Under the pieces are notes generated by a model. That model saw only the letters and a list, made by a program, of their open reading frames with translations. It did no database searches and had not been told where the DNA came from. A DNA stretch of 20,000 nucleotides from an uncultured virus (IMG/VR IMGVR_UViG_3300023273_001138) (Duplodnaviria; Heunggongvirae; Uroviricota; Caudoviricetes), in IMG/VR virus record IMGVR_UViG_3300023273_001138. One strand, given 5' to 3'. The position numbers and the translations under genes are program-made. Below, piece after piece: positions 1,651 to 17,542 of the stretch; positions within the stretch are counted from its first letter, which is position 1; each line of letters begins with the position of its first letter.

Positions 1651-1854
1651 ATGCCAATACTAAGAGGACAGACTCATCCTTCTGCAAAATTAACGGATGA
1701 GCAGGTTATACAAATAAGAAGGTTATGGAAAATGGGACACCGAAATGTAAGAGTGATAGCTCGAAACAATAAGGTATCCCCAGCCAATATCATTAAGATT
1801 GTCAAAAATAAAACTTGGACACACCTAAATGAATTTTGGTCTGGTAGTTTATGA
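1651..1854 (+). CDS. Small stand-alone helix-turn-helix protein resembling the C-terminal DNA-binding domain of phage HNH endonucleases
   Basis: Pattern GxxHPxAKLTxxxVxxIR...IA...VSxxxIxxIxxxKTWxH; no HNH catalytic part; stop overlaps next start (ATGA 1851-1854). Confidence 0.7.
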   Translation: MPILRGQTHPSAKLTDEQVIQIRRLWKMGHRNVRVIARNNKVSPANIIKIVKNKTWTHLNEFWSGSL

Positions 1855-2618
1855 AAGAGGAGAAAACATATTGTGATACTTCTAAACTTTCCATTCGTCT
1901 TATAACCAAATCGGTAGCGAAGGATATCATTGTTAACAACCATTATAGTGGATTGTGGACAAAGGTATCTTACGCAATTGGTTTATTTACCTCTGATGTA
2001 GAAGAACATCCTTTTTTTGATAATGTAGAAGATAAACTAATTGGAGTAGCTTGTTATGGAGACCCAATTGGTAGAAGTGCTGGACAATCAATATCCCCTT
2101 TATTGGAAAGAACTGAAGTATTAGAACTAACTCGATTATTCGTATTCGATGGATATGGTTCTAATATAGAGAGTTGGTTCTTAGGTCAAACTTTTGATTG
2201 GTTAAGAGAGAATGTACCACAAATAAAAGCACTTATTTCATATTCAGACCCTAAAGAAGGGCATTGTGGTACAATTTACCAAGCAACTAATTGGTTGTAT
2301 CAAGGTAACAAACTAAGATTCAATGATAGTTGGGATTTCAGATGGGAAGCAGGTGGTGATTGGCACCACGGAAGAACTTCTTATGTGAAATTTGGAACAA
2401 ATGACCCCAAAGAAATACAAAAAATGATATCATCTACTTTTTGGATAAAGAAAAATCCAAGAAAACATAGATATGTGTACATTTTAGCCAAAGGTGGTGA
2501 AAGAAGGAAGTTGTTAAACAATATTAAACATCCAACCTTCCCCTATCCTAAAGAAAATGAACAATTTGTGGAAGAAATTCATAGAATGGACCCGATAAAT
2601 TTGGAAATTACAAAATAA
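1851..2618 (+). CDS. mom: Mom-like GNAT-fold DNA (adenine) modification protein, paralogue 1
   Basis: Motifs NNHYS, IGVACYGDP, LELTRL, NIESWFL, ISYSDPKEGHCGTIYQATNWLYQG, KHRYVY match my recollection of the Mu Mom family. Confidence 0.8.
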   Translation: MKEEKTYCDTSKLSIRLITKSVAKDIIVNNHYSGLWTKVSYAIGLFTSDVEEHPFFDNVEDKLIGVACYGDPIGRSAGQSISPLLERTEVLELTRLFVFDGYGSNIESWFLGQTFDWLRENVPQIKALISYSDPKEGHCGTIYQATNWLYQGNKLRFNDSWDFRWEAGGDWHHGRTSYVKFGTNDPKEIQKMISSTFWIKKNPRKHRYVYILAKGGERRKLLNNIKHPTFPYPKENEQFVEEIHRMDPINLEITK

Positions 2619-2631
2619 TTTAGTATATTTG
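2600..2631 (+). promoter_or_regulatory. Bacteroidota-type sigma70 promoter (-33 TTTG / -7 TAnnTTTG)
   Basis: TTTG 2600-2603, 20-nt spacer, TATATTTG 2624-2631; 17 nt upstream of ATG 2649; spacer holds inverted repeat AAATTA-N5-TAATTT. Confidence 0.8.
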
Positions 2632-2648
2632 TAAAAATTAGTAGTATT

Positions 2649-2807
2649 ATGACTGAATCAGAAGAAATTGAAGAAATCTTAATGGAATCATCATCTTATG
2701 GATTAAGAATAGAAGTAATGAAAACTGCTTCTGAAATTATGGGAAGTAATCCCAAAATGAGAAAAGTAGATGCATACCAACAAGCTTTCAACGAATGGGT
2801 AAAGTAG
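2649..2807 (+). CDS. 52-aa hypothetical protein, absent from the ORF track
   Basis: MTESEEIEEILMESSSYGLRIEVMKTASEIMGSNPKMRKVDAYQQAFNEWVK*; fills the gap between the Mom paralogues, follows a promoter and overlaps the next start by 13 nt. Confidence 0.75.
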   Translation: MTESEEIEEILMESSSYGLRIEVMKTASEIMGSNPKMRKVDAYQQAFNEWVK

Positions 2808-3601
2808 AAGGAAAGAAATATTGTGATGCTAGTAAAGTAAGTATTGCACCAATAGCTAAATCTATCGCTAAAGATATGATTATCAAAAAGCATTACACTC
2901 ATGCTTGGACTGCATGTAGGTACGCTTTAGGTATCTATCATCAAATGGATGAAAAAGATATCTTTGGTAATGATAAAAAGTTGGTAGGAGTAGCTGTATA
3001 TGGATTCCCAGTAGGAGCAAAAGCATCCACCTCAGTTTGTGAGGGATTAACAAAAGATAACATCTTAGAACTTACTCGATTGTATGTTGATGATGGGTAT
3101 GGTTCAAACATTGAGAGTTGTGCATTAGGTAAAACCTTCCAATGGTTAAAGGATAACGATACCAACATCAAAGTTCTTCTATCTTATGCTAATAATGGAC
3201 AAGGGCACTTAGGTGGGATTTACAAAGCAACCAATTGGATTTATCAGGGATTGAATACTGATATCGCTCTGATGCCAAATTGGGGTATTTCACTATCTAA
3301 TGACCCATACGATTGGATTCACTCTCGAACTGTATTCAACAATTGGGGAAGTGGTAACTTAGAACATCTCAAAAAAGAAATCGGAAAAGAGGGATATAAA
3401 GAATTTTGGAGAAGAGAAGAACCTCCAAAACATAGATACATTCAGATTCTTGCTCAAAATAAAAAAGAGAAAAAGGATTTGATGAAAAGGTTGAAGCATG
3501 AGATTCGACCTTATCCAAAAGAGTTGAATGATTATAATACTGAAGTAGTACATCATTTAACCTATCCACCAGAGGAAAGTAACGAAATAAATTTTTGGTA
3601 A
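2795..3601 (+). CDS. mom: Mom-like GNAT-fold DNA modification protein, paralogue 2
   Basis: Colinear with paralogue 1: YCDxSK, KKHYT, VGVAVYGFP, LELTRL, GYGSNIES, LSYANNGQGHLGGIYKATNWIYQG, KHRY, PYPKE. Confidence 0.8.
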   Translation: MGKVEGKKYCDASKVSIAPIAKSIAKDMIIKKHYTHAWTACRYALGIYHQMDEKDIFGNDKKLVGVAVYGFPVGAKASTSVCEGLTKDNILELTRLYVDDGYGSNIESCALGKTFQWLKDNDTNIKVLLSYANNGQGHLGGIYKATNWIYQGLNTDIALMPNWGISLSNDPYDWIHSRTVFNNWGSGNLEHLKKEIGKEGYKEFWRREEPPKHRYIQILAQNKKEKKDLMKRLKHEIRPYPKELNDYNTEVVHHLTYPPEESNEINFW

Positions 3602-3617
3602 AAAAAAGTGAAAAAAT

Positions 3618-3652
3618 ATTTGGATAATTAAAAAATTATTCTTATATTAGTA
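3618..3652 (+). repeat. 35-bp direct repeat, copy 1 (33/35 identical to 9133-9167)
   Basis: ATTTGGATAATTAAAAAATTATTCTTATATTAGTA versus ATTTGGATAATTAAAAAATTATTCGTATATTTGTA. Confidence 0.9.
3619..3650 (+). promoter_or_regulatory. Bacteroidota-type promoter with a one-mismatch -7 box
   Basis: TTTG 3619-3622, 20-nt spacer, TATATTAG 3643-3650; near-identical to the promoter at 9134-9165. Confidence 0.72.
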
Positions 3653-3707
3653 TCATAAAATTGAGCGGGGATGTTCCCCAAATGTTAAAACCCTAAAACA
3701 ATAAGTT

Positions 3708-5468
3708 ATGGATTTTCCAAAAGTTACTAAAAAACAATTTAAAGAATTGATATCAAATATTAGAGATACCTATTTGGATTGGTGTGTTCATAATAACGAA
3801 ACACACTTTGATGGTTGTACCATTACATGGGGAGATTTAAAAATGTATCCCAAAAAATATCAAGGTGAATTGGAAGTTGGTGATATACAAAACTCTCAAT
3901 CAAATAGAGACCCATCTATATTAGATACATCTAAAAAATTACCTAAAAAATTATCTTACGCACTTCGTATTATGGGTGGTAATTCATCTTTCAACTTCTT
4001 ACCATTGGGTATGTTAGATGATACTATCGCTCTACAAGCAGAAGATAGAGGGCATGAGGGTACTATATTGTTCTTTCACTATGAAAAGTCTTGGTCAAAA
4101 TCAATATGGAAAAAAGTACAAAGACAATTAGATTCTGAACTACCTGAAGATGATAGAACAGCTAGCACTAAATTGATTGCAGAAAATTTAAGTAATAAAT
4201 TAAAAGATAAAAAAATAACTGAATTATCTTTATCTGAGGTAATACCATCATCGGTATGTAAGAAGCAATCAAATACCAATATTCCGATTCAAATAAAAGT
4301 ATATCCAAATCGTGCAATGCATCGTAGAGAAATATTGGGCATCAATAATAGTGAGGATTCTTGGACAACTCACCAAAAGGGAATGTTATCAGCGGAGATA
4401 AAATTAGATGATAAATATGGTGTTGGTAATGATTATATGGATACTATCTATTCACTGGTAGAGGGAGATGAACTATTTCAGGGTGAAAAAACTATGTTTA
4501 GCCGCCATAACAAAGTAGGGGATAAGATGGAACGATTTGAAGAAGAAATCATTATGTTATGGAATAGTTCTAGGAAAACTAGAACAGGTGGTATTTTGGA
4601 TATTTATCGTGGATTTGATTGTTCAGCTGAAAAGAGAAGAATAAAGCAGTATGAGGATTATGTAATAGCTACTAATAAAACTGATGCTGAAAATGAAGCT
4701 AGTGTTGGTAAAGAATTTCTTAATTGGATATCTGAATGTGTAGATATTAATACATTTGAAAATAACATAGAGCAGGTTATTAATAAGCATAATGGTTCAT
4801 CAACTACCAACATCAATGATTTATCTATGACTAAAGTGGATTCTGCACTAATGATAGCTCATTTGATTGATAATTATATAAAATTATCATCATCCAATCC
4901 AACGAAGGAAACGGTATTAAATGTAACTGGTTATGTGTTACAAATGGCTTCTGATTTAATATTGGAATCAAAAGTACAAAACGCTTTAATTAAAGCTGGT
5001 ACTGGTGCCAATGGGAGATATAACAAATTCTATTCAATATTGGAAGAAGAGCTTAAAAAATTACCTTATGAAACTATTAGTGATGTAAAGAGTACTTTGA
5101 TTTCTATGGCTAAACAATCATTAGATACCTCACTAAATCCAAATGGTGATATTTCTATGATTGACCGTAATAATGGTTCTAAATCTGAATTTAAAATAGT
5201 AACAGTTAATATATCAAATGGTGTTGGGTTTGATAAAGGACATAAAAACTCTGGAAAAGATGGTAAAGATATTTCTAATTTCTTCCTACAATTTTCAGGT
5301 GATAATAGATTTCATTCAAACAAACGAAACTTTATTCCATCGGAATACTCTTTGGAATATCTAAACTCCATTAAACAATTTATGAATACGCATGATTTAA
5401 TGATGGATGATGATTGGCAAGAGGCATATCAAAACACTCGTAAATTTGTTAATAGTGTTTGGAAATAA
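3708..5468 (+). CDS. 586-aa hypothetical protein; possible degenerate C-terminal HNH-like motif, possibly DUF262/GmrSD-like architecture
   Basis: Long intact ORF behind its own promoter, so the CDS itself is secure. C-terminal FDKGH...G...SNFFLQFSGDNRFHSNK resembles DxxH...G....N......N HNH motifs; function is speculative. Confidence 0.6.
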   Translation: MDFPKVTKKQFKELISNIRDTYLDWCVHNNETHFDGCTITWGDLKMYPKKYQGELEVGDIQNSQSNRDPSILDTSKKLPKKLSYALRIMGGNSSFNFLPLGMLDDTIALQAEDRGHEGTILFFHYEKSWSKSIWKKVQRQLDSELPEDDRTASTKLIAENLSNKLKDKKITELSLSEVIPSSVCKKQSNTNIPIQIKVYPNRAMHRREILGINNSEDSWTTHQKGMLSAEIKLDDKYGVGNDYMDTIYSLVEGDELFQGEKTMFSRHNKVGDKMERFEEEIIMLWNSSRKTRTGGILDIYRGFDCSAEKRRIKQYEDYVIATNKTDAENEASVGKEFLNWISECVDINTFENNIEQVINKHNGSSTTNINDLSMTKVDSALMIAHLIDNYIKLSSSNPTKETVLNVTGYVLQMASDLILESKVQNALIKAGTGANGRYNKFYSILEEELKKLPYETISDVKSTLISMAKQSLDTSLNPNGDISMIDRNNGSKSEFKIVTVNISNGVGFDKGHKNSGKDGKDISNFFLQFSGDNRFHSNKRNFIPSEYSLEYLNSIKQFMNTHDLMMDDDWQEAYQNTRKFVNSVWK

Positions 5469-5480
5469 TTAAAATAAAAT

Positions 5481-6611
5481 ATGAGAGTATTAGTAATACC
5501 TAATTATACAAATTTTGGACAAGTAAAGGATATCAATAGGGATTCGTTCCTATTGGTATTCAAGTCCTTTTTAGATAACACACAAATTGGAAAGGAGTGG
5601 GAGTGGGTCTTACCATATCCAGGTGGTGGAATGCACAATCATCCAGGTATTATAAACACTTTCGAATATCCGAATGTAACGATGTTACAAATGGACCCGA
5701 TAGATTGTTTTCCAGCTAAGATGAGGGTTGATTATCCTCACAAATTTTTTGAGAAGGTTATTGAGAAATATGAAGGAAAATTTAATCTCGTTTGGAGCCA
5801 TTTACCTGAGTGGACAAATTTATTTAAGATATCAAGAATCTACAATAAATTACAACCTATAATTGGCTACTGCCATTGGAGCGAAATACCCGAAAATGGT
5901 GCTAGAACGGAAAACTCATTTTGGACAAACATTAGAGGTATTTTACAAATGGAAGTTTGTGGTGTAAACTCTGAATATCAAAAAAGTGTTATTCTTAAAA
6001 ACGCAGCTTTAGATTTCCAACCACATATTGTTGAAAAGTTGGATAAGATTATTCAACCTTGGTATTTAGGATGTGATACAGCTACTCCTTCAAATGGATA
6101 TGATGATAAAACAATCGTATTCAATCATAGAGAAGGTGTTTATACTGGTTCTAAATGGTTCTTTGAAACTATGGATGAGTTGTGGAAAGAAAGGCAGGAT
6201 TTCAAAGTTTATACTACTTTGAAAGAAATGGGTAAACCTTATACAAAGTATATTGGAGCAGCTGATAGAAAAGTGTACCTAAGTCAATTATCAAAAGCAC
6301 ATTTTGGTGTTGGTACTTTCCAAGGTTATTCAGCTTGGAGTATGAGTACAACTGATGGATTTTCAGTAGGTGTACCATATTTACTACCAAATGGTTTTTG
6401 TTATCCTGAAATGGTAGGTGATGATTATCCACTTCTTTATAATGGTAAGAAAGAATTTAAAGAAATGGTAATAAAGTTATTAGATGGTGATATTCCAAGA
6501 CCTGATGTAACTCACCTTGCTCAATCTCTCCTATGGGAATCACAAATTGAGAAATATTGGAATGTTGAGAAAAATTTTATTGGTAACCTAAGAAAAGAAT
6601 TTAACGATTAA
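5481..6611 (+). CDS. GT-B fold glycosyltransferase, possibly acting on DNA bases
   Basis: N-terminal MRVLVIP strand, IVFNHR...TG, YLSQLSKAHFGV, WSMSTTDGFSVGVPYLLP..CYPEMV (GT-B nucleotide-sugar binding region); TAATG overlap with the polymerase start. Confidence 0.78.
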   Translation: MRVLVIPNYTNFGQVKDINRDSFLLVFKSFLDNTQIGKEWEWVLPYPGGGMHNHPGIINTFEYPNVTMLQMDPIDCFPAKMRVDYPHKFFEKVIEKYEGKFNLVWSHLPEWTNLFKISRIYNKLQPIIGYCHWSEIPENGARTENSFWTNIRGILQMEVCGVNSEYQKSVILKNAALDFQPHIVEKLDKIIQPWYLGCDTATPSNGYDDKTIVFNHREGVYTGSKWFFETMDELWKERQDFKVYTTLKEMGKPYTKYIGAADRKVYLSQLSKAHFGVGTFQGYSAWSMSTTDGFSVGVPYLLPNGFCYPEMVGDDYPLLYNGKKEFKEMVIKLLDGDIPRPDVTHLAQSLLWESQIEKYWNVEKNFIGNLRKEFND

Positions 6612-9133
6612 TGTACCAAAACTGCTACTACCAAAGAGAAAAGAATCTCGTTCATATTTGGGATGATAAAAAAGGATACTTCAATTTTCCTTATACTCGA
6701 TACGCATACGAAAAGGCTGATAGAGGTGAGTTTACAACTCTTTATGGAGATAAAGTAACCAAAATCTACAAATTCACAAAAGATGACCCAAATCTTTTCG
6801 AATCAGATGTACCTGAAACTACGAGAGTTTTGGTAGATACTTATACTGATTCGGATTTACCATCAGAAGGACACACTATTCTTACTTATGATATTGAGTG
6901 TGAGATGGAGAGCGGTTTACCAAATCCAGAAGAAGCAGAGAATGAATTAACTTCAATCGCACTACATGATTCAGTAACCAATCAATATTGGGTTTTGGTT
7001 ATGGATAAAAGTGGTGATATGTTGGAAAGAAAAACTGATAAAGCAATTGTGATTCCATTTAAGCAGGAAGAACAAATGTTATTAAAGTTTTTAGAGTTAT
7101 ATGAGATGATTAATCCATCGATTGTAACTGGTTGGAATATTGATTACTTCGATACACCAATGTTATACAATCGTATCAAACGATTGTTGGGTAAAAGAGC
7201 CGCAAATCGCTTATCACCTATTGGTGAGTGTTTTTGGTCTCCTTATCGTAAAAGATTCTTTATGGCTGGTGTATCGTACTTAGATTACTTAGCATTATAC
7301 AAAAACTTCACATACTCGGAATTAGATTCTTATAGATTAGATTCCATTTCTATGAGAGAGTTGAATAGAAAAAAGATTGAATATGATGGAAACTTAGACC
7401 AATTATTCAGAGATGATATTGAGAAGTTTATAGAGTATAACTTAGTGGATGTTGAACTTGTAGTAGAATTAGATAACAAACTTCAGTTCATTGATACCGC
7501 TCGAGGTATTTGTCACGCTGGGCATGTACCTTACGAAGATTTCGTTTATTCTTCAAAGTATTTGGAAGGAGCACTTTTATGTTACCTAAAAAGAAAGGGT
7601 ATTGTTGCACCTAACAAACCAGCTGATAGAAGAGAACGAATGGAAGCTCTTAAAGAGAATAAAGAAGAGAAGTTTATCGGAGCATATGTAAAAGCACCAA
7701 TTGTTGGTAAATATGATTGGATATATGATTTGGATTTAACTTCCCTATATCCATCTATTATTATGACTATCAATATTTCACCTGAAACTAAGATGGGTAA
7801 AATTGAAGATTGGAGTGCTGAGGATTATGTTAAAGATAAAAGGGATAGTTGGGTTATCAATGGTGATACAATCACACAAGAAAATCTAAAAAAGTTTTTT
7901 GAAAGAAGTAAGTTTTCAGTTGCATCAAATGGTGTTCTTTATAGAACGGATAAAGTGGGTTGTATTCCTGATATTTTGGACTTGTGGTTCTCTCAGAGGG
8001 TTGAGTTCAAAAACAAAATGAAAGAATATGGAAACAGTGGAGAAAAAGAAAAATACGAATGGTATAAGAAACGTCAGTTGGTTCAGAAAATTCTACTTAA
8101 TTCTTTATATGGTGTGCTTGGCCTTCCTGCCTTTAGGTTCTATGATGTTGATAATGCTACCGCTGTTACCACAACGGGACAGACAGTTATTAAATCAACT
8201 GCGGATATGGCTAACATCAAATACAATAAGGAGCTTGGTACTCCTAATGCTGACTCTAATATATACATTGATACTGATTCTGTATTTTTCTCAGCAGCTC
8301 CACTTTTAGACCATAGGATTCCAAATTGGAAAGATAATGAGCAAGATACTATTGCTGGATTCGTAAATGATATTGCAGGTGAAATGCAAGATTATCTAAA
8401 TGATTTTTATGATATTCTTGCTGAAAAAGTATTCAATGTAGATAAGGATAAACATCGATTTGAGATTAAGAAAGAATATGTTTCTAAATCAGGTATTTGG
8501 ATTGCTAAGAAACGATATGCACAATGGATTATTTCCGATAATGGTGTACCTGTTGATAAGTTGGATGTAAAAGGATTAGATGTTGTTCGTTCATCATATC
8601 CAGCAGCATTTAGAAAGTTTATGAGTGAGGTTCTGATTGAAATCCTTAGAGGTGATACTGAAGAACAACTTACGAATAAAGTGTATGATTTTAAAAAGAA
8701 TCTACCAAATATGGATGTGGTGAAGATTGCAAAAGCTGGAGCTGTGAAAAACTTATCAAAGTATATGCCAAAGAAAAAGAATCAAACAGCTATGTTCCAA
8801 TTTCCATCTGGTTGTCCGGCGCATGTTAAAGCAGCAATTGCATATAATCAATTACTAAAACACTTTGGGGTGGAAAATCAATACGAACCCCTAAAGGATG
8901 GTGATAAGATTAAGTGGGTTTATCTAAAACAAAATCCATATGGGTTGGATGGTGTAGCTATGAATGGTTACAATGACCCACCTCAGATTATGGAACTGAT
9001 TAACACTTATATCAATCACGATAAAATCTTCGAAAGAGAACTTCTAAAAAAATTAGAAGATTTCTACGGAGCATTAGATTGGGGAGAAGTTTTATCCTCA
9101 ACAAAAACAGCTGAGAAATTTTTCTCATTTTAA
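6611..9133 (+). CDS. polB: Family B DNA polymerase (T4 gp43-like) with 3'-5' exonuclease
   Basis: Exo motifs YDIE, TGWNIDYFD, YNLVDV; polymerase motifs DLTSLYPS, KILLNSLYG, YIDTDS, KKRY; 840 aa with no intein or intron. Confidence 0.98.
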   Translation: MYQNCYYQREKNLVHIWDDKKGYFNFPYTRYAYEKADRGEFTTLYGDKVTKIYKFTKDDPNLFESDVPETTRVLVDTYTDSDLPSEGHTILTYDIECEMESGLPNPEEAENELTSIALHDSVTNQYWVLVMDKSGDMLERKTDKAIVIPFKQEEQMLLKFLELYEMINPSIVTGWNIDYFDTPMLYNRIKRLLGKRAANRLSPIGECFWSPYRKRFFMAGVSYLDYLALYKNFTYSELDSYRLDSISMRELNRKKIEYDGNLDQLFRDDIEKFIEYNLVDVELVVELDNKLQFIDTARGICHAGHVPYEDFVYSSKYLEGALLCYLKRKGIVAPNKPADRRERMEALKENKEEKFIGAYVKAPIVGKYDWIYDLDLTSLYPSIIMTINISPETKMGKIEDWSAEDYVKDKRDSWVINGDTITQENLKKFFERSKFSVASNGVLYRTDKVGCIPDILDLWFSQRVEFKNKMKEYGNSGEKEKYEWYKKRQLVQKILLNSLYGVLGLPAFRFYDVDNATAVTTTGQTVIKSTADMANIKYNKELGTPNADSNIYIDTDSVFFSAAPLLDHRIPNWKDNEQDTIAGFVNDIAGEMQDYLNDFYDILAEKVFNVDKDKHRFEIKKEYVSKSGIWIAKKRYAQWIISDNGVPVDKLDVKGLDVVRSSYPAAFRKFMSEVLIEILRGDTEEQLTNKVYDFKKNLPNMDVVKIAKAGAVKNLSKYMPKKKNQTAMFQFPSGCPAHVKAAIAYNQLLKHFGVENQYEPLKDGDKIKWVYLKQNPYGLDGVAMNGYNDPPQIMELINTYINHDKIFERELLKKLEDFYGALDWGEVLSSTKTAEKFFSF

Positions 9134-9167
9134 TTTGGATAATTAAAAAATTATTCGTATATTTGTA
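9133..9167 (+). repeat. 35-bp direct repeat, copy 2
   Basis: 33/35 identity with 3618-3652. Confidence 0.9.
9134..9165 (+). promoter_or_regulatory. Bacteroidota-type sigma70 promoter
   Basis: TTTG 9134-9137, 20-nt spacer, TATATTTG 9158-9165; upstream of clamp ATG 9198. Confidence 0.85.
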
Positions 9168-9197
9168 ACACTTAAAAATAAATCTTAAAAGTAAATT

Positions 9198-9893
9198 ATG
9201 GAAAAAGTAAAATTCGATGGTTTCATCAATCGATACAATCTCGGTGGAGAGGTTGAATCAGTAATGGTAAAATCAGAAGGTTCTGACCTTTCAGTTAGAA
9301 TGATTTCTGATGACAAAACTCTTTTAGGGGATGTAACTTCAGCTAATACTGATTTCCCAAATGGGGAATTTGGTATTTATACTACATCTCAGTTGAAAGG
9401 GTTATTGAGTGTGTTAGATAACACTATTGAAGTAGAAGAAGTAACTGGAGCACTAAAGTTCTCTGATAAGGGAACAAAGATGCAGTATATGTTAGCAGCA
9501 CCATCAGTTATCCCAGCGGTACCTGATTTAAAAGCACTTCCTCCCTTCAATGTAGAAGTAACACTAAACGATGAGTTCGTAAACAAATTTATCAAATCTA
9601 AGGGAGCATTAGCAGATGCTGATACTTTCACATTCACTTGTAAAAATAACAATGGAGAGATTATCTTAGGTTATTCTTCAATCAATTCAAATAGAATTTC
9701 TATCTCAGTTGATTGTACTTGTGATGGTGATGTTGAACCAATCGCATTCTCTGCGAAATATCTAAAAGCTATCCTATTGGCTAATAAAGGTTCAAATTCT
9801 TCTTCATTGAAGATTTCATCACAAGGTTTGGCACATCTAAACTTTGTTGATGGAGATTATACCAGCAATTACTATCTCGTAGAAATTAAGTAA
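9198..9893 (+). CDS. gp45: DNA polymerase sliding clamp (gp45/PCNA-like)
   Basis: 231 aa beta-rich two-domain pattern, EFGIYTTSQLKGLLSVL (gp45-like FGIYDLxxFL), FSAKYLKAIL and C-terminal YYLV (PCNA-like); lies between the polymerase and clamp loader. Confidence 0.85.
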   Translation: MEKVKFDGFINRYNLGGEVESVMVKSEGSDLSVRMISDDKTLLGDVTSANTDFPNGEFGIYTTSQLKGLLSVLDNTIEVEEVTGALKFSDKGTKMQYMLAAPSVIPAVPDLKALPPFNVEVTLNDEFVNKFIKSKGALADADTFTFTCKNNNGEIILGYSSINSNRISISVDCTCDGDVEPIAFSAKYLKAILLANKGSNSSSLKISSQGLAHLNFVDGDYTSNYYLVEIK

Positions 9894-9895
9894 TT

Positions 9896-11113
9896 ATGAG
9901 TTTTTGGGATACTGAACCAGCAAAGCCAGAATTCATCTTTGAGGAGGAAAAAAGAAAACTCAAAGAGAATATGGATTATCTAATGACAATGAGTGTTGAA
10001 GAACAAACTCTATACAAAAAGTGGGTAGAGTTGCAAGAATCTTCAATGCTTAGAGATAAATCCCAAATCGCTACTCTTTATGATACTCAATGGAAACCAA
10101 CTGATATCAACAATAAAGAACTAACCATCAAAGAAATTGAAGAGTTAGAACCTTATGTTGAAATTGTAGAGGATTCAGCTGAAGCTACAAAGTGGACTTA
10201 TCTTAGAAAGATGATTCACACTATGAGTTGGACAGCTAATCCTGGTCGAAATGTGAAATTGTTTATCAAAGATAAGAAGAGTGGTAAATTGTTAGGTTTG
10301 GTATCACTAGCCTCAGATGTTACTTCTATGAAAGTAAGAGATGATTACATCGGATGGACTAAAGAAGATAAATTCAAAAAGGGAAAGTTGAACTACACAA
10401 CTATCGCTTCCACCATCGTTTGTACCCAACCTTTAGGTTACAACTTTTTAGGTGGTAAACTCACCGCAATGATGACTACAGTTCCAGAAGTTAGAAATTA
10501 TTGGAAAGAAAAGTATGGGCAAACATTGATAGGTGTAGGTACAACTTCCCTTTATGGAATTCATTCACAATATAATGGTATTCCGCATTTTAAAACTTTA
10601 GGAGAATCCGCTGGTAAGATTGCAATCAAACCTGATGATGAGTTCTATGACCCTTGGCACCAATGGTTGAAGGAAAATAGAGCAGATTGGTACGAAAATG
10701 CAATCACTAACGAAAGAATCAGAAATGGTAAAAATATGGGAACTGGTGAAGGTGCTAGTGGACCTGTAAGTGGTATCAAACAAAAGATTCTTTCTCAGAT
10801 TCTAAGAGAATGTGGTATCAAAGCATCTGATTATCATCACGGATTTAAAAGAGGTGTATATCTTGCTATGATGTACGAAAACGGACCTGAGTTCCTCCGT
10901 TCAGAAATTGAAGAATCGGAACTTGTTATGAAGAAAAAGTTTGAAGATGGTGTAGATTACATCAACAATTGGTGGAAAAAACAAGCAATCAAACGATATT
11001 CTAAGTTGCATGATGAAGGTAGATTAAAACCTGAAGATTTATTCTATATCGATGGTATTGGTAAAGATTGGGAAACCTTCAAATCAGAAAGATTAAAAGA
11101 AGTAGGTAGATAA
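9896..11113 (+). CDS. DUF4338 / Druantia DruA-like protein
   Basis: Motifs PGRNVKLFIKD..GKLLGLVSLASD, RDDYIGW, QPLGYNFLGGKL, TTSLYG..SQYN, LGESAG recalled from DruA/DUF4338 proteins. Confidence 0.72.
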   Translation: MSFWDTEPAKPEFIFEEEKRKLKENMDYLMTMSVEEQTLYKKWVELQESSMLRDKSQIATLYDTQWKPTDINNKELTIKEIEELEPYVEIVEDSAEATKWTYLRKMIHTMSWTANPGRNVKLFIKDKKSGKLLGLVSLASDVTSMKVRDDYIGWTKEDKFKKGKLNYTTIASTIVCTQPLGYNFLGGKLTAMMTTVPEVRNYWKEKYGQTLIGVGTTSLYGIHSQYNGIPHFKTLGESAGKIAIKPDDEFYDPWHQWLKENRADWYENAITNERIRNGKNMGTGEGASGPVSGIKQKILSQILRECGIKASDYHHGFKRGVYLAMMYENGPEFLRSEIEESELVMKKKFEDGVDYINNWWKKQAIKRYSKLHDEGRLKPEDLFYIDGIGKDWETFKSERLKEVGR

Positions 11114-11123
11114 AATATAAATT

Positions 11124-12071
11124 ATGGGATTTTTTGAAGAAACTAATAATGAACAAGTAGATAACTCACTTTGGGTAGAATCATATCGCCCAACTACTTT
11201 AGAAAATTATGTGGGTAATGAACACTTAAAAGAAAAAGTAAGTGGTTATTTAGAAACAGGTGATGTACCTCACTTACTTCTTTATGGTAGAGCTGGTACT
11301 GGTAAGACAACTCTTGCCAAATTGATTGTAAAATCATTAGATTGTGATTATATGGTAATCAACGCATCTGATGAGAACAATGTGGAAACTGTAAGAAATA
11401 AAGTAAAAGGATTCGCATCATCGATGGGATTCAAAAAGTATAAAATCATTATCTTAGATGAGTTTGATTATATGTCTCAGAACGCACAAGCGATTCTTAG
11501 AAATCTTATGGAAACATTTTCACAACATTGTAGATTCATTTTGACTTGTAACTATGTTGAGAAAGTTATTGACCCTATCCAAAGTAGATGTCAAACTTTC
11601 CAAATCATTCCTCCTACTAAAAAGGATGTAGCAGTTCAAATCTCAAAGATTCTTAAAAATGAAGAAGTAAAGTTTGAACCAAAAGATTTAGTTCCAATTA
11701 TTGATGCTGGATATCCTGATATTAGAAAGATTATCAATACTTGTCAATTAAACTCAATCAAAGGTGAGTTGAAAGTAGATACTCAAAACCTTTTAGAGAA
11801 TGATTACAAAATGAAAGTTTTGGATATCCTAAAATCTTCGGATGATAAGAGAAACAAATATGTGAATATGAGACAAACTATCATTGATAGTAGAGTAACT
11901 GATTTCTCAGAATTATTTACTCTCTTATATGAAAAGGTAGATGAGTACGCTCCACAAAACACAGCGAATGTAATCATCGCTCTTTCTGAAGGACAGAATA
12001 AACACTTCAACGCTATTGATAAAGAGATACCAATGGCAGCAACTTTGATTGAAATTTTAAACTTAATATAA
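11124..12071 (+). CDS. gp44: Clamp loader AAA+ ATPase (RFC small subunit / T4 gp44-like)
   Basis: LWVESYRP, Walker A GRAGTGKT, INASDE, Walker B ILDEFD, AQAILR, SRC motif. Confidence 0.96.
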   Translation: MGFFEETNNEQVDNSLWVESYRPTTLENYVGNEHLKEKVSGYLETGDVPHLLLYGRAGTGKTTLAKLIVKSLDCDYMVINASDENNVETVRNKVKGFASSMGFKKYKIIILDEFDYMSQNAQAILRNLMETFSQHCRFILTCNYVEKVIDPIQSRCQTFQIIPPTKKDVAVQISKILKNEEVKFEPKDLVPIIDAGYPDIRKIINTCQLNSIKGELKVDTQNLLENDYKMKVLDILKSSDDKRNKYVNMRQTIIDSRVTDFSELFTLLYEKVDEYAPQNTANVIIALSEGQNKHFNAIDKEIPMAATLIEILNLI

Positions 12072-12382
12072 TGGCAAATATAATTGGTAAAGGTGGTAGT
12101 AAACCACAAAAAGCATCAGAACAAAGTACACAACAATCACCAAAGATTGATTTAGGTAAATCAACTCCCGTTGTTTGTGCTCATTGTGGATATGATGTAT
12201 TTGTAGATGGTGCTAAATTTAGAAAAATCTCAAAACTAATCACTGGTACTCCGCAAGATGTAGTTGTACCAATTGAAGTAATGTTATGTGGTAATTGTGG
12301 TGAGATTTGTGAAGAATTACTACCAGAACAAATGAAAGTATTAAACGAAATTGATAAAAGAAATTCTGAGGAGAATGCCTAA
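12071..12382 (+). CDS. Zinc-ribbon hypothetical protein
   Basis: CAHCG and CGNCG pairs; TAATG coupling to the clamp loader gene. Confidence 0.75.
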   Translation: MANIIGKGGSKPQKASEQSTQQSPKIDLGKSTPVVCAHCGYDVFVDGAKFRKISKLITGTPQDVVVPIEVMLCGNCGEICEELLPEQMKVLNEIDKRNSEENA

Positions 12383-12824
12383 ATCGTTGTTTGACCACAT
12401 AAAAGCAATTACCAATGAGCAAGACCCTAAGTATTGGGATAAGTTAGAGGAAGCTGATAAGAAAACATTTTCTAACTATATGGTACTTCGTTTTCTATCT
12501 ATGAAATATGAGTGGGTAGAAACCATTGCAGCAGTTCAACCATATTTACAGGAAGTTCCTCCTAAAGCAATGTATTTGGCTATGATTGATTTACTTCCAA
12601 AGGGTAGGCACTTTATGAAGTATATGAAAGCTAAAACTGCCGATAAATACGAAGGTTGGTTAGTAGAGTTGGTAGCTAAACATTATGAAACCTCAAAGTT
12701 AGAAGCAGAAGATTACTTAAAGATTCTATATGCTAGTAGAACTGGTAAGGAAAGAATCAAACAATTATCAGAGGATTATGGAACTGACCCAAAGATAATT
12801 AAGAAATTAAAATTAAAAATATAA
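12375..12824 (+). CDS. gp62: Clamp loader small subunit (T4 gp62-like)
   Basis: SLFDHIKAI...FSNYMVLRFLSM...LLPKGRHFMKYMK pattern typical of gp62-like proteins; position after gp44; start 12375 preferred to 12351 because the overlap is shorter and GAGGAG precedes it. Confidence 0.72.
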   Translation: MPKSLFDHIKAITNEQDPKYWDKLEEADKKTFSNYMVLRFLSMKYEWVETIAAVQPYLQEVPPKAMYLAMIDLLPKGRHFMKYMKAKTADKYEGWLVELVAKHYETSKLEAEDYLKILYASRTGKERIKQLSEDYGTDPKIIKKLKLKI

Positions 12825-12826
12825 TT

Positions 12827-12857
12827 GAGAAAAGTTTGGAAATCCCAAACTTTTTTC
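12827..12857 (+). terminator. Stem-loop (probable intrinsic terminator) overlapping the next promoter
   Basis: GAGAAAAGTTTGG-AAATC-CCAAACTTTTTTC, 13-bp stem with one G-U pair, T-run on the 3' arm, immediately after the stop at 12824. Confidence 0.6.
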
Positions 12858-12866
12858 GTATATTTG
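12835..12866 (+). promoter_or_regulatory. Bacteroidota-type sigma70 promoter
   Basis: TTTG 12835-12838, 20-nt spacer, TATATTTG 12859-12866; upstream of ATG 12885. Confidence 0.82.
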
Positions 12867-12884: not shown

Positions 12885-13754
12885 ATGGCAAAAGTAAGTT
12901 TTTCACAATATCAACTATATTCATCTTGTCCTCGTGCATATAAACTGAGGTACATAGATAAGTTGGGTGAATCATCTGCTAACATTTATACAATCTTCGG
13001 AACAGCTATCCACGAAACCATACAACATTTCCTTTCAGTTATGTATGGAGTTTCGAAAAAACAAGCTATGGAAATTGATACCGATAAGTTGTTGTTAGAA
13101 TGGATGCGAAAAGAATACATCAAAGAGAACGAAAAGTTGACGGAAGGGAGTGTATGTACTCAGTTGGAGTTAGAAGAGTTCTATGGTGATGGTAGAAGAA
13201 TATTAGAATGGTTTAAAAAGAAATTAGATAAGTTTTACACAAAGACTGGTTTTGAATTGGTAGGTATTGAATTACCCCTAAACGCAAAAGTAAAGGAAGG
13301 TGTAAACTTCATCGGATTTGTGGATATCGTAATGAAAGATTTATCAGATAATTCAATCATCATTATTGATTTGAAAACATCAACAATGGGTTGGAACAAA
13401 TACGCTAAAGCTGATAAATACAAAAACGCTCAGATTGTTCTTTATAAGAAATACTATTCAGAACTATTCAATGTTCCTTTAGATAAAATCAAAGTTGAAT
13501 ATCAGATTATGAGGAGAAAACTCTATGAGGATGCTCCTTTCCCAATTCCTTATATGTCTAGGCATGTACCTGCTAATGGTAAACCAACTGTAAACAAAGT
13601 TTATAATGAGTTTATGGGATTCGTTAATGAGGTATTTGATGATGAAGGTAAGTTCAACGATTTGCCTTATCCAAAGGTGCCGGGTGAACGGAAAAAGAAT
13701 TGTAAGTTTTGTGAATTCCTTCAAAGAGGAATTTGTGATGGAAATCCATCGTAA
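12885..13754 (+). CDS. PD-(D/E)xK nuclease, Cas4/AddB-like exonuclease with Fe-S cysteines
   Basis: SFSQ...CPRAY, FGTAIHE, GFVDIV, IIDLKTS, QIVLY and C-terminal CKFCEF....C (1+3 Cys arrangement). Confidence 0.9.
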   Translation: MAKVSFSQYQLYSSCPRAYKLRYIDKLGESSANIYTIFGTAIHETIQHFLSVMYGVSKKQAMEIDTDKLLLEWMRKEYIKENEKLTEGSVCTQLELEEFYGDGRRILEWFKKKLDKFYTKTGFELVGIELPLNAKVKEGVNFIGFVDIVMKDLSDNSIIIIDLKTSTMGWNKYAKADKYKNAQIVLYKKYYSELFNVPLDKIKVEYQIMRRKLYEDAPFPIPYMSRHVPANGKPTVNKVYNEFMGFVNEVFDDEGKFNDLPYPKVPGERKKNCKFCEFLQRGICDGNPS

Positions 13755-13800
13755 AAATATATTTCTATATACTTATATATAAACATATAATTTGTATATT

Positions 13801-13998
13801 ATGAGTGTAGAAACTAAACTAACAACTGTAAAGATTATAAAGGGTGTTTATTCTAACTTTAAAAGGGTTTCTTTTGAATCTGATGTAACACTTCAAAAAT
13901 TAGTAAACAGAACAGTTGAACGATATGTAACCGATGAACAATTTAGAGAAGAGATGAATGAATATCTTAAACTCCAAATTTCAGGTTCACAATTTTAA
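13801..13998 (+). CDS. Small ribbon-helix-helix-like DNA-binding protein
   Basis: 65 aa from ATG 13801; strand KLTTVKI followed by helices VYSNFKRVS and TLQKLVNRTVERYV. Confidence 0.6.
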   Translation: MSVETKLTTVKIIKGVYSNFKRVSFESDVTLQKLVNRTVERYVTDEQFREEMNEYLKLQISGSQF

Positions 13999-14020: not shown

Positions 14021-15412
14021 ATGAGTAAAAAGAAAAAGATTCTTCTTCTTTCAGATGATTTAAGAATGGCGAGTGGTATCGCCACTATGAGTAAAGCGTT
14101 GGTAATGGGAACTGTTGATAAATACGATTGGTTCCAAGTAGGTGCAGCAATTAACCACCCTGATAAAGGTAAAATTTTAGATGTATCGGCTGATATTCAA
14201 AAACAAACTGGTGTCGAAGATGCATCGGTTAAAATACTTCCGTGGACTGGATATGGTAACGCTGATTTGGTTAGACAATTACTAAATACTGAAAGGCCTG
14301 ATGCTATTCTTCACTTTACTGACCCAAGATATTGGATTTGGTTGTATGAAATGGAACATGAGTTAAGGCAAAACATTCCTATTTTATTCTATGCAATTTG
14401 GGATGATTTACCAGACCCACTTTACAATAGAAATTATTATGAGAGTTGTGATTGGATTGGTTGTATTTCAAGACAAACTTATGGTATTGTATCTCGTTTG
14501 ACAAGTAGAACTGATAAACCAACTTGGAAACCTCATAAAGATTGGCAGGTATCTTATGTTCCTCATGGTATTAATCCAAATGAATACAAACCAATTGATG
14601 TACCTAAACCATTTAGAGATGAAATATTAGCTGGAAATGAGTACGATTATGTATTCTTCTGGTCAAATCGTAATATTCGTAGAAAACAACCTTCGGATGT
14701 GATTATGGCATTTAAGGATTTTTGTAATAGAATAGGTGAAGAAAAAGCTAAGAAAGTTGCATTAGTAATGCATACCCAACCAACTGACCAAAATGGTACT
14801 GATTTACCAAAAGTTCATCAGACATTAGCACCCGAATGTAATGTAATATTTTCAGATAAACGAAGAAGCGTAGCTGAACTGAATTATCTTTATAATATAG
14901 CAGATTGTACAATTAACATTGCAGGTAATGAAGGGTTTGGGTTAACAACTGCAGAATCGGTAATGAGTGGTACACCTATTATTGTAAATGTTACAGGTGG
15001 ATTACAAGACCAATGTGGATTCAGATTTAAAGATACTGGAGAACTTCTAACTGCTGAAGATTACAAAGAAATCGGTTCACTTCACAAATGGAGAGATTGG
15101 GAAGATAAACTAACTTGGGGAGAATGGGCAAGACCAGTTTGGAGTAGAGCCCAAACTATGGCAGGGTCAGTTCCTACCCCATATATTTGGGATGATAAGA
15201 TTGATGTATATGATGTGGCAACTGCTATGGAAGAAATGTACAAAAAACCCAAATCAGAACTGAAAGAAGCTGGTTTAAAAGGTAGAGAGATGTTCAAAGG
15301 TGAAATGGGGTTAGTAAACACAAATATGTGTCAAACTTTAGTAGATGGAATCGAAGGAACATTTGAAAATTGGAAACCAAGAAAAAAATACGAATTATTT
15401 AAAATTAAGTAA
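14021..15412 (+). CDS. Glycosyltransferase, GT4-like (GT-B)
   Basis: KILLLSDD...SGIA, YVPHGI, NRNIRRK, LYNIAD, NEGFGLTTAESVMSGTPII...TGGL (ExFGLxxxE motif). Confidence 0.92.
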   Translation: MSKKKKILLLSDDLRMASGIATMSKALVMGTVDKYDWFQVGAAINHPDKGKILDVSADIQKQTGVEDASVKILPWTGYGNADLVRQLLNTERPDAILHFTDPRYWIWLYEMEHELRQNIPILFYAIWDDLPDPLYNRNYYESCDWIGCISRQTYGIVSRLTSRTDKPTWKPHKDWQVSYVPHGINPNEYKPIDVPKPFRDEILAGNEYDYVFFWSNRNIRRKQPSDVIMAFKDFCNRIGEEKAKKVALVMHTQPTDQNGTDLPKVHQTLAPECNVIFSDKRRSVAELNYLYNIADCTINIAGNEGFGLTTAESVMSGTPIIVNVTGGLQDQCGFRFKDTGELLTAEDYKEIGSLHKWRDWEDKLTWGEWARPVWSRAQTMAGSVPTPYIWDDKIDVYDVATAMEEMYKKPKSELKEAGLKGREMFKGEMGLVNTNMCQTLVDGIEGTFENWKPRKKYELFKIK

Positions 15413-15413
15413 T

Positions 15414-15770
15414 ATGAATGATGTAAACAATTGTAATCACATAAATAATCTATACTTTAGAGCATTTAATGAAAAAAATTTAGATGTATTGGCATCTCAA
15501 GTATATTCACCAAATGTTGTATTAAAAGATTGGGTTGGTGAATGGGTTGGTAGAGATAATGTTTTGTTGGAAAATAAAAAGTTTTTTGAAAATGAGTTTA
15601 CTTTAACAGTTGAAAATACAATTATGGGATTTGATAATGATATGCACTTAGTTACTGCAAAAAATGATATTGTTATTGAGATTGGTGGAGAAACTATAAA
15701 CGCAGTTGATGAATTAGTATTTGAACAAAATTCATCACGCATAAGAAGTATTACAGCATATAAAAGATAA
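15414..15770 (+). CDS. NTF2/SnoaL-like fold protein
   Basis: YFRAFNEKNLDVL..YSPNVVLKDW....GRDNV...VDELVF...IRSITAY; start 15414 lies just after the upstream stop at 15412. Confidence 0.75.
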   Translation: MNDVNNCNHINNLYFRAFNEKNLDVLASQVYSPNVVLKDWVGEWVGRDNVLLENKKFFENEFTLTVENTIMGFDNDMHLVTAKNDIVIEIGGETINAVDELVFEQNSSRIRSITAYKR

Positions 15771-15776
15771 GAAGTT

Positions 15777-17078: not shown

Positions 17079-17542
17079 TGAATTACAGTTCACAATATAG
17101 ACAGTATTTAGATTATGGCAATCGTGTATCTAAATCCAGTATACAGCCATATGGAATTTACAAAATTTCAACCTATAAGTATGTTGATGAAGGTAGACAG
17201 AGTCTAAAGGGTGAGTATGAAACTTTGATATTCGTTACGGGTATTTTTCAAAAGAAAGTTTCGGCACTGAAACTATCAAATATACAACCACTTAAATTTT
17301 TAAATTGGTTTAAACGAATAGCTAATAATAAATACAATGAATCCGATTCTCAATATATTGGTTTATATGAAATAGAAACTCCAATGGATATTGGTGGTAA
17401 TCGTATTTATGATTCATACATCAGAAACAATAAAGATTTTGTAGCAAAAGGAGCAGCTTATAGAACTTATAAGTTAGAGGGTATTCAATACGCTACTGAA
17501 GTATTTTTAAAGAAAAACATATTAGAAAGATATTATGGTTAA
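17078..17542 (+). CDS. Hypothetical protein (154 aa)
   Basis: Intact ORF overlapping both neighbours (TAATG at start, 8 nt at end); basic and Tyr-rich; no confident family. Confidence 0.7.
   Translation: MNYSSQYRQYLDYGNRVSKSSIQPYGIYKISTYKYVDEGRQSLKGEYETLIFVTGIFQKKVSALKLSNIQPLKFLNWFKRIANNKYNESDSQYIGLYEIETPMDIGGNRIYDSYIRNNKDFVAKGAAYRTYKLEGIQYATEVFLKKNILERYYG

Follow-up and report, generated by a model that had tools for sequence, protein, structure and literature searches.

We analysed a 20-kb stretch of DNA, hereafter the window, that spans positions 178,516-198,515 of the 252,603-bp uncultured virus record IMGVR_UViG_3300023273_001138 in IMG/VR, which is rated 100% complete. Between positions 1651 and 12824, the window interleaves genes for two Mom-family GNATs (Mom1 and Mom2), a DruA-like (DUF4338) protein, and a predicted glycosyltransferase (GT, p376) with those for a family-B DNA polymerase (PolB), a sliding clamp, and a clamp loader. 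This arrangement recurs in 91 distinct related loci. It probably represents a conserved DNA-modification set inside the replication operon of uncultured T4-like phages that form an abundant aquatic group. The long open reading frames (ORFs) of the window lie on the + strand throughout, and GC content is 29-36%. The locus contains the following features (E, E-value).

1651..1854, + strand: orf67, a small helix-turn-helix (HTH) protein of 67 amino acids (phrog_20467, E 8e-6).
1851..2618, + strand: Mom1, a Mom-family GNAT (PF25680, E 1e-43).
2600..2631, + strand: promoter-like motif TTTG..N..TAnnTTTG before the small ORF and Mom2 (spaced-pattern match).
2649..2807, + strand: putative coding ORF of 52 amino acids between Mom1 and Mom2 (13-nt overlap with the Mom2 start).
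2795..3601, + strand: Mom2, a Mom-family GNAT with a C-terminal Phe/Tyr-Trp (PF25680, E 2.3e-45).
3708..5468, + strand: orf586, a family-less protein whose slot, flanked by Mom2 and the GT, is swappable (36 homologues).
5481..6611, + strand: p376, a predicted GT-B (GT4-like) glycosyltransferase of 376 amino acids (AlphaFold2 (AF2) model and Foldseek).
6611..9133, + strand: PolB (gp43-like), ending ...KFFSF (PF00136, PF03104; phrog_262, E 6e-188).
9134..9165, + strand: promoter-like motif before the clamp and DruA-like genes (spaced-pattern match).
9198..9893, + strand: sliding clamp (gp45-like; phrog_223, E 8e-13; no Pfam family).
9896..11113, + strand: DruA-like (DUF4338) protein with a predicted GNAT fold and a disordered N-terminal Met-Ser-Phe-Trp-Asp tag (PF14236, E 6.3e-22).
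11124..12071, + strand: clamp-loader large subunit (gp44-like), starting Met-Gly-Phe-Phe-Glu (phrog_168, E 2e-79).
12071..12382, + strand: orf103, a small Cys-pair protein between the clamp-loader genes (weak Zn_ribbon_3 match, E 0.0098; position conserved).
12351..12824, + strand: clamp-loader small subunit (gp62-like; PF16790, E 1e-5; phrog_225, E 2e-16).

Direct reading of the gene junctions showed that the orf67 stop overlaps the Mom1 start (ATGA), that the TAA stop of p376 and the ATG of PolB overlap as TAATG, and that the DruA-like gene starts 2 nt past the clamp stop. The original prediction for this stretch proposed a replisome-embedded DNA hypermodification system. All of the genes it named are present on the + strand where it had placed them. 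Its two claims about gene order, the TAATG coupling of the 376-amino-acid gene to PolB and a DUF4338/DruA-like gene between clamp and clamp loader, were likewise borne out by the sequence and the PF14236 match. The gene set stands as listed but started too late: the conserved HTH gene orf67 also belongs to it.

The source is an uncultured T4-like marine phage. Genome-wide Pfam scans identified a T4-type complement of portal, gp23 capsid, sheath, gp25, terminase, gp32, UvsX-like RecA, and DnaB-type helicase genes. The closest isolate is Microcystis phage Mel-JY01, with 52% identity in PolB, and whole-window megablast against 50,697 phage records found no close DNA relative. We infer a Bacteroidota host because the genome encodes TonB-dependent receptors (two in all) with CarboxypepD_reg domains, because a TTTG..TAnnTTTG motif recurs, and because the closest cultured Mom2 homologue (43% identity) is in Polaribacter phage P12002L.

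We compared the locus with its relatives in IMG/VR. The p376 protein as query retrieved 50 loci, and an 11-row alignment of DruA-like proteins retrieved 80, of which 78 were new. Removing loci with identical DruA-like DNA left 91 distinct loci (labelled L; whole records are labelled G), and the gene arrangement in them is far from chance. The clamp gene lies directly upstream of the DruA-like gene in 80/80 loci that have at least 800 nt of upstream sequence, and gp44 follows within 2.2 kb downstream in 86/88. A p376-family GT precedes PolB in 41 of 42 loci, 29 of them with at least 60% identity and 12 below 60% (mostly ~30%); it is missing in L135. Among loci with at least 9 kb of upstream sequence, 32/34 contain a Mom gene, and the two Mom-free loci (L025 and L109) have Mom genes at other places in the same record. 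Most loci carry two Mom copies; L088, L099, and L135 carry one, and L019 carries three. Beside its Mom pair, the record that holds L109 (G001) has another DruA-like stretch, interrupted by two in-frame stops (54130-54753, - strand), in addition to the intact copy at the clamp. In L023 and L024, a GT-B gene is followed by the clamp gene without PolB between them.

Whole-record searches separated the core of this set from its companions. Record G004 (100% complete) contains two Mom genes, one DruA gene, and one GT gene; G002 (90% complete) contains one Mom and one DruA gene and no GT; and Mel-JY01 contains none of the three. Because of these counts, we conclude that Mom and DruA-like genes travel together and that the GT is a usual companion but a dispensable one. 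Neighbourhood conservation in related phages had been proposed as a check on the original prediction, and the check came out in its favour: Mom and DruA-like genes co-occur at fixed places in the replication block in dozens of relatives.

Gene order need not reflect mechanism. The modification genes could be mobile anti-restriction genes that sit among replication genes and act after replication, throughout the cell, without contacting the clamp. In L092, L093, and L095 the Mom pair lies ~9 kb downstream of the DruA-like gene. In several lineages the modification genes are better conserved than the replisome genes, which fits cassette exchange; L018, for example, shares 83% identity in Mom2, 83% in the GT, and 80% in the DruA-like protein, versus 55% in PolB and 57% in gp44. 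Mu Mom, moreover, acts alone on double-stranded DNA (dsDNA) after replication (PMC13219725). We nonetheless consider a meaningless gene order rather unlikely, given the invariant place of the DruA-like gene beside the clamp and the position of its homologue in the distant cultured cyanophage S-SM2, between gp44 and gp62.

Mom1 and Mom2 are both intact and score far above the curated PF25680 cut-off of 27.1 bits (149.9 and 155.2 bits, respectively). They are the two PF25680 matches in the genome, and 14 control genomes contained none, in line with the predicted pair of Mom paralogues. Mu Mom is a GNAT that transfers glycine from Gly-tRNA(Gly) to the N6 of adenine in dsDNA, after which the adduct rearranges while on the base (Silva et al., PMC13219725). 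The same report describes an obligate dimer in which R111, S124, and R151 are essential and D149, H58, Y59, Y159, W48, and W181 are important. The original prediction spoke of an acylated adenine. The Mom family assignment holds, but the product should be called aminoacyl-derived, because the Mom donor is Gly-tRNA(Gly). A phage-borne donor tRNA was rejected for this genome when a tRNA search came back empty, so the aminoacyl donor, if any, must be derived from the host.

We aligned both paralogues to the Mu Mom structure (PDB 8bv8). Mom1 (E 2e-8) keeps H58, Y59, R111, S124, D149, Y159, and W181 and has K in place of R151. Lysine occupies position 151 in 22/23 unique Mom1 orthologues, and D149 is kept in 23/23. 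Mom2 keeps H58, Y59, R111, S124, and Y159, with G at position 151 and N at 149; among its 27 unique orthologues, 23 have G at position 151, and position 149 is divided between D (18 sequences) and N (9 sequences). The counterparts of R111 and S124 (R95 and S108 of the alignment) are invariant across 26 Mom sequences. The Mu dimer residue W48 is kept in neither paralogue. W181 belongs to an HTH-like insertion through which Mom1 aligns, and both paralogues have a near-invariant W, although the pairwise alignment of Mom2 to 8bv8 ends at chain residue 163.

The substitutions in Mom2 raise the possibility that it is no independent enzyme but has lost catalytic strength and serves as a partner of Mom1, guiding Mom1 to the clamp or to DNA. 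The G at 151 and N at 149 of the window protein, the obligate dimer of Mu Mom (PMC13219725), and an end tag that is present on Mom2 and not on Mom1 would all suit such a role. We regard it as quite unlikely, since neither paralogue varies at R111 or S124 and neither has the dimer residue W48. In addition, the single-Mom relatives L088, L099, and L135 carry the Mom2 type and not Mom1, which argues at the level of sequence that Mom2 functions independently of Mom1 despite its substitutions.

The HTH gene orf67 precedes Mom1 and is found in 36 loci, with 27 invariant columns among 13 orthologues. In Mu, the upstream partner of mom is the zinc finger protein Com. A Com-like identity was rejected for orf67, which lacks cysteines and has the look of an HTH protein. 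Many relatives do without the 52-amino-acid ORF, and their Mom1 and Mom2 genes overlap each other directly. The locus differs from Mu in other respects: Mu has one enzyme, and the phage described here has two paralogues and a third predicted GNAT; mom is expressed late in Mu, a temperate transposing phage, whereas the genes described here are part of the replication operon of a lytic T4-like phage and have host-type promoter motifs; and the aligned Mu sequence has no terminal Phe-Trp (FW) tags.

The DruA-like protein matches PF14236 over residues 82-335 (78.5 bits; cut-off 27 bits) and has 1079 relatives at E<=1e-3 in a library-wide phmmer search. An AF2 model built from 46 diverse sequences reached a pLDDT score of 92.4, with residues 1-6 disordered. 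The model has an intact GNAT core, and Mom is its nearest solved structure, so that on the model the DruA-like protein is a GNAT-fold protein. A 2024 paper also called DUF4338 a GNAT (PMC10853773). We scanned the domains of 27 homologues, 24 chosen as longer than the query and 3 near the query length. Seven carry a fused ParB_N domain, and UDG-superfamily, DUF3102, and GIY-YIG plus NUMOD3 domains occur once each. These fusion partners are DNA-directed domains. Mom1, Mom2, and the DruA-like protein make up a conserved set whose substrate is probably DNA.

ParB-type partners of phage DNA-modifying enzymes have been described. A ParB-type activator of phage thymine dioxygenases is published (PMC13229309), and the ParB_N domains of 7/27 DruA-like homologues, together with a DGQHR motif in an alternative gene of the orf586 slot, recall this system. 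The window itself has no ParB_N domain. In cultured phages of Microbacterium, among them Appa and MenE, genes of the Mom type directly adjoin genes for ParB-like nuclease domains, which echoes the ParB_N fusions.

The bacterial relative of the DruA-like protein is DruA of Druantia type I, which shares the PF14236 family and, by the DUF4338 assignment (PMC10853773), the GNAT core. The protein studied here is phage-encoded, has an N-terminal FW tag, and is flanked by clamp and clamp-loader genes and not by druB-druE. In Druantia type I, these partners include a large DUF1998 helicase, DruE; genome-wide Pfam scans at E<=1e-8 noted no DruE-type protein, with no dedicated search run for one. The literature we searched contained no published mechanism for bacterial DruA.

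Phages often copy parts of host defences. The DruA-like protein, a homologue of a defence-system protein by its PF14236 match, could thus be a counter-defence decoy or inhibitor of a host Druantia-type system and not a DNA-modifying enzyme. We find this very improbable. The mean column identity of the protein across relatives is 82%, above that of PolB and unlike fast-evolving anti-defence genes; the modelled fold retains an intact GNAT core; and ParB_N and UDG domains are found as fusion partners of its homologues. DruA-like genes are also found in cyanobacterial and Pelagibacter phages, with 29 cultured phage records comprising 23 Synechococcus phages, 3 Pelagibacter phages, 2 entries named 'Marine virus', and 1 cyanophage.

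We looked for features that might couple the modification proteins to replication. Mom2 ends in [FY]W in 27/27 unique orthologues, and the tail that precedes these residues varies. The DruA-like protein starts Met-Ser-Phe-Trp-Asp, and FW occurs within the first 12 residues in 119/120 close homologues. The third Mom of L019 starts Met-Glu-Phe-Trp, and 29/120 GT homologues have an N-terminal FW tag. Replisome proteins have similar ends: gp44 starts Met-Gly-Phe-Phe-Glu, and PolB ends Lys-Phe-Phe-Ser-Phe. Among the 242 ORFs of the genome, FW is found twice at residues 3-4 and twice at the C-terminus, versus ~0.14 expected for each from residue frequencies. Two further family-less ORFs are tagged (L055), a 258-amino-acid protein that starts Met-Thr-Phe-Trp-Glu (13173-13949) and a 70-amino-acid protein that ends Gly-Phe-Trp (17198-17410).

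These ends suggest that Mom2 and the DruA-like protein may dock on the sliding clamp through their FW tags. A precedent exists in T4, where purification recovers the alpha-glucosyltransferase together with the gp45 clamp (Sommer et al. 2004, cited in PMC13216743). The level of modification by the T4 enzyme was reported not to depend mainly on clamp binding (PMC13216743), a point that favours enzymes acting cell-wide without clamp contact. The strict conservation of terminal FW tags on otherwise variable tails counts against that alternative. The original prediction placed base modification at the replication fork. Such a location is tentatively suggested by the end tags, the gene order, and promoter-like motifs in the sequence.

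The intergenic promoter-like motif TTTGGA[AT]A..N..GTATATTTG has 13 copies on the + strand across the genome and a single copy on the - strand. In the window, the spaced pattern TTTG..N..TAnnTTTG has 5 matches, 3 of them intergenic on the + strand, versus 1.18 expected. Sites lie at 2600-2631, 9134-9165, and 12835-12866, with variants at 1468-1497 and 3619-3648, and they precede Mom2, orf586 (a variant), the clamp gene, and a PD-(D/E)XK nuclease gene. We take the pattern to fit the Bacteroidota -33/-7 promoter consensus. Because such motifs precede these genes, the sequence suggests that the modification genes are transcribed along with the replication genes, unlike the late mom gene of Mu. 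A T4 late-promoter motif (TATAAATA) had 1 match versus 4 expected and was not used.

Contigs from four metatranscriptome libraries, of which one was DNase-treated, match Mom1, orf586, the GT, PolB, the clamp gene, and the DruA-like gene with 0-1 mismatches; uncovered bins carry no meaning in this comparison. These contigs establish presence in RNA libraries and not proven transcription. In all four contig sets, contigs break on both sides of the PolB-clamp motif (window 9130-9168) and have dissimilar sequence past the break. Such breaks fit a motif that is shared by many loci or strains.

The GT-B assignment of p376 stood as a fold but could not be seen in the sequence. The protein matched no Pfam or PHROG family, had no match among PDB sequences at E<=10, and had none among the phage records at the protein level. 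An AF2 model built from 24 sequences (pLDDT 85.7; predicted template modelling score 0.86) gave at least 500 Foldseek matches in the PDB at E<=1e-3, with GT4 enzymes leading. The top matches were 7qsg_A (E 3.3e-11) and MshA (3c4q_A; template modelling score 0.73, E 1.1e-10). The phage HY126 GT (9ir0, E 3e-10) was among them and ranked no better than many GT4 enzymes. By its model, p376 is a GT4-like enzyme with a GT-B fold. It has 617 homologues. In some relatives, a GT-A enzyme of PLOD type (PF25342, E down to 2.5e-26) is encoded directly upstream of the GT-B gene (L006:9312-10001, L016:9273-10001, and L023:1012-1728).

We considered what the GT might glycosylate. The original prediction drew an analogy to T4, in which the sugar is placed on a hydroxylated pyrimidine. 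The genome encodes a single thymidylate-synthase homologue (PF00303, E 7e-95) with canonical C146, L143, D169, and N177. In ThyA homologues, D169N leads to 5-hydroxycytosine (5hoC), and N177D or a changed L143 gives substrate and product switches (Lee et al., PMC13326640). Judged by these residues, the homologue is, at the level of sequence, an ordinary dTMP synthase and not a 5-hydroxy- or hydroxymethyl-pyrimidine synthase. Genome-wide Pfam scans turned up no hydroxymethylase and, at E<=1e-8, no TET/JBP-type enzyme, with many ORFs still unnamed; the genome does encode a dCMP deaminase. Given the canonical ThyA and the lack of a hydroxymethylase or TET/JBP-type enzyme in the scans, the phage is thus missing the known routes to a base that could accept a sugar. 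The T4 analogy fits poorly, and T4-style glycosylation of hydroxylated pyrimidines appears unlikely. The GT might act on a small molecule, on a protein, or, speculatively, on what Mom or DruA produces.

Two known systems illustrate the difference. The alpha-glucosyltransferase of T4, like p376, is a GT-B enzyme encoded near the replication genes of a T4-like phage, and clamp binding is a feature of the T4 enzyme. It acts on 5-hydroxymethylcytosine made by a dCMP hydroxymethylase, whereas the phage described here has a canonical thymidylate synthase and no precursor route that we found, and the p376 model is GT4-like and not close to the DNA GT families. The arabinosyl-5-hydroxycytosine clusters of RB69, DLP3, and HY126 (Lee et al., PMC13326640) also belong to T4-like phages and combine several GTs with sugar-nucleotide genes. 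According to that report they need a ThyA homologue with D169N, unlike the D169 form found here.

The 586-residue protein orf586 was originally called an orphan. It belongs to no named family, as sequence and profile searches (with all 25 family members scanned) found no Pfam, PHROG, or PDB match. It is not a singleton, having 36 homologues down to 38% identity and more distant relatives at 13-25% in the same slot. An EDRGH motif and a His...Asn...Asn tail were read by eye only. A GmrSD/DUF262-DUF1524 or DndB-like identity was also considered: PF03235, PF07510, and PF14072 had no match in the genome at E<=10, and the Atlas leads to DndB and GmrSD_N were sub-threshold (up to 0.86). No ParB match was detectable either.

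The slot between Mom2 and the GT varies among relatives. It holds at least 8 clusters of genes unlinked by BLAST (~420-680 amino acids) and occasional homing endonucleases, including a GIY-YIG enzyme, and it is empty in L021. One alternative occupant, the 506-amino-acid family (502-562 amino acids; L007/L009/L029/L035 at ~8481-10001, L016:7324-9012, and L045:2862-4370), has a DGQHR motif and a C-terminal His..Asn..Asn tail. From its sequence it looks like a ParB/DUF262-plus-HNH nuclease; it matched no Pfam family at E<0.05. An hhalign comparison with orf586 gave a probability of 0.2, or no profile link. Because the slot holds at least 8 unlinked gene clusters, orf586 is probably a variable accessory gene and not the fixed pathway member that had been envisaged.

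These observations bear on whether the DNA-modifying set is limited to the HTH-Mom1-Mom2 genes and the DruA-like gene. The GT, with a protein, lipid, or small-molecule acceptor, and orf586, as an accessory gene at a permissive site, would then be passengers. We regard this as a real, if doubtful, possibility. The 90%-complete relative G002 keeps Mom and DruA without a GT, and homologues of the GT (46-49% identity) occur in unrelated phages that lack Mom and DruA (L049-L051). The nearest folds to p376 include MshA, BshA, and PimA, and its best matches in BFVD outside its own family are Arthrobacter phage GTs, with DNA alpha-GT at rank 47. The missing route to a hydroxylated base, the unlinked clusters and GIY-YIG homing endonuclease of the slot, and a genome rich in other glycan genes would also be expected of passengers. 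Against them stand the GT directly upstream of PolB in 41/42 loci, though at ~30% identity in 12, and its TAATG coupling to PolB. The FW tag on 29/120 members of the GT family is of the DruA-like N-terminal type, and Mel-JY01 lacks GT, Mom, and DruA alike.

We favour, as somewhat probable, a modification set of the Mom kind that is embedded in the replication operon and marks new phage DNA against host nucleases. Mom1 and Mom2 would act like Mu Mom, moving an aminoacyl group (glycine, by analogy) from a host charged tRNA to the N6 of adenine in phage dsDNA, where the adduct would rearrange to a carbamoylmethyl-type adduct. The two paralogues may differ in sequence context or in donor. The DruA-like GNAT may also acylate or aminoacylate DNA at another site or base, and the GT, where present, may put a sugar on the product of Mom or the DruA-like protein or on another acceptor. 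Host-type promoters would drive the modification genes together with the replication genes. Mom2, through its C-terminal Phe-Trp, and the DruA-like protein, through its N-terminal Phe-Trp, would dock on the sliding clamp in the manner of the polymerase tail, and new DNA would be marked as it is made and escape host nucleases.

Several observations weigh against this proposal. The essential R151 of Mu Mom is replaced in both paralogues, by K in Mom1 and by G in Mom2, and D149 is N in the window Mom2; the phage carries no tRNA genes. The link between the DruA-like protein and Mom is structural and model-based only, and the catalytic residues of Mom could not be mapped onto the DruA-like protein. 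Foldseek searches of the PDB with the DruA-like model gave no match at E<=1e-3; the weak matches were all acyltransferase folds, with Mom at rank 45 (E 0.015). An hhalign comparison of the DruA-like and Mom profiles had a probability of 0.3, which says little because the profiles are shallow (effective number of sequences 1.5). GNATs act mostly on non-DNA substrates. The end tags are not universal: FW is present in 0/67 distant DruA homologues, where F[FW] occurs in 7/67 and is mostly Phe-Phe-Asp, and the window GT and Mom1 have no end tag. The RNA-library contigs may be carried-over DNA. Finally, the structures nearest to p376 act on small molecules, lipids, or unknown acceptors, its distant homologues occur without Mom or DruA, and a relative that keeps both of these lacks the GT.

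A bolder version of the proposal seems improbable to us. In it, three Mom-type GNATs, two of them tethered to the clamp by Phe-Trp tags, would install tRNA-derived aminoacyl adducts on freshly copied DNA, and the PolB-coupled GT-B enzyme would glycosylate one of these to give an undescribed sugar-bearing purine. By extension, the DNA acyltransferase with which Druantia type I marks self would be bacterial DruA.

The Mom family, PF14236, and the GT-B fold are known; what is new is the composition of the set and the constant position that it takes in the replisome operon. The literature we searched held nothing on DUF4338/DruA in phages or on Mom, DruA, and GT together, and a network of >8000 Mom contigs (PMC13219725 supplement) may include this group. 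Mom-type chemistry was explained only in 2026, for one enzyme of one temperate phage, and here two or three copies accompany a DruA-family GNAT in lytic phages. If the set modifies DNA, it would provide a function for DUF4338/DruA, a component of a widespread bacterial defence system. Clamp docking would, by analogy, extend co-replicative DNA modification beyond the single precedent of the T4 alpha-GT. Modified adenines in abundant marine phages, if confirmed, would affect native-DNA sequencing and restriction-based virome methods. Cultured carriers of DruA-like genes, including Synechococcus phage S-SM2 and its relatives and Pelagibacter phages Mosig and HTVC008M, make the system testable.

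Other genes surround the modification set. After the clamp loader, behind a hairpin-plus-promoter-like site, lies the PD-(D/E)XK nuclease gene (PF12705, E 3e-23; window 12885-13754), which is kept in most relatives and at 43% in Mel-JY01. Downstream is a large glycan gene cluster that spans window positions 14021-19908 and continues to ~genome position 208,000 (L065:2413-11967). Its first part encodes a GT4 enzyme (463 amino acids), a SnoaL-like protein, a second GT (433 amino acids), and two GT2 enzymes. Its second part encodes a UDP-GlcNAc 2-epimerase, aminotransferases, a GNAT, FkbM and other methyltransferases, a HAD-nucleotidyltransferase, and another GT2 enzyme. The cluster appears to be independent of the Mom/DruA set because three of its GTs are kept at 37-45% in Mel-JY01, a phage without Mom and DruA.

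Elsewhere in the genome, a 446-amino-acid protein combines an N6/N4 DNA methylase domain with a weak I-TevI-type DNA-binding domain (L066:17694-19034) and represents a separate DNA-modifying enzyme. Auxiliary genes encode a heme oxygenase and a ferredoxin-dependent bilin reductase (L067:11386-12560), ribosomal protein S21 (L065:15139-15399), and GroES/GroEL (L067:12881-14800).

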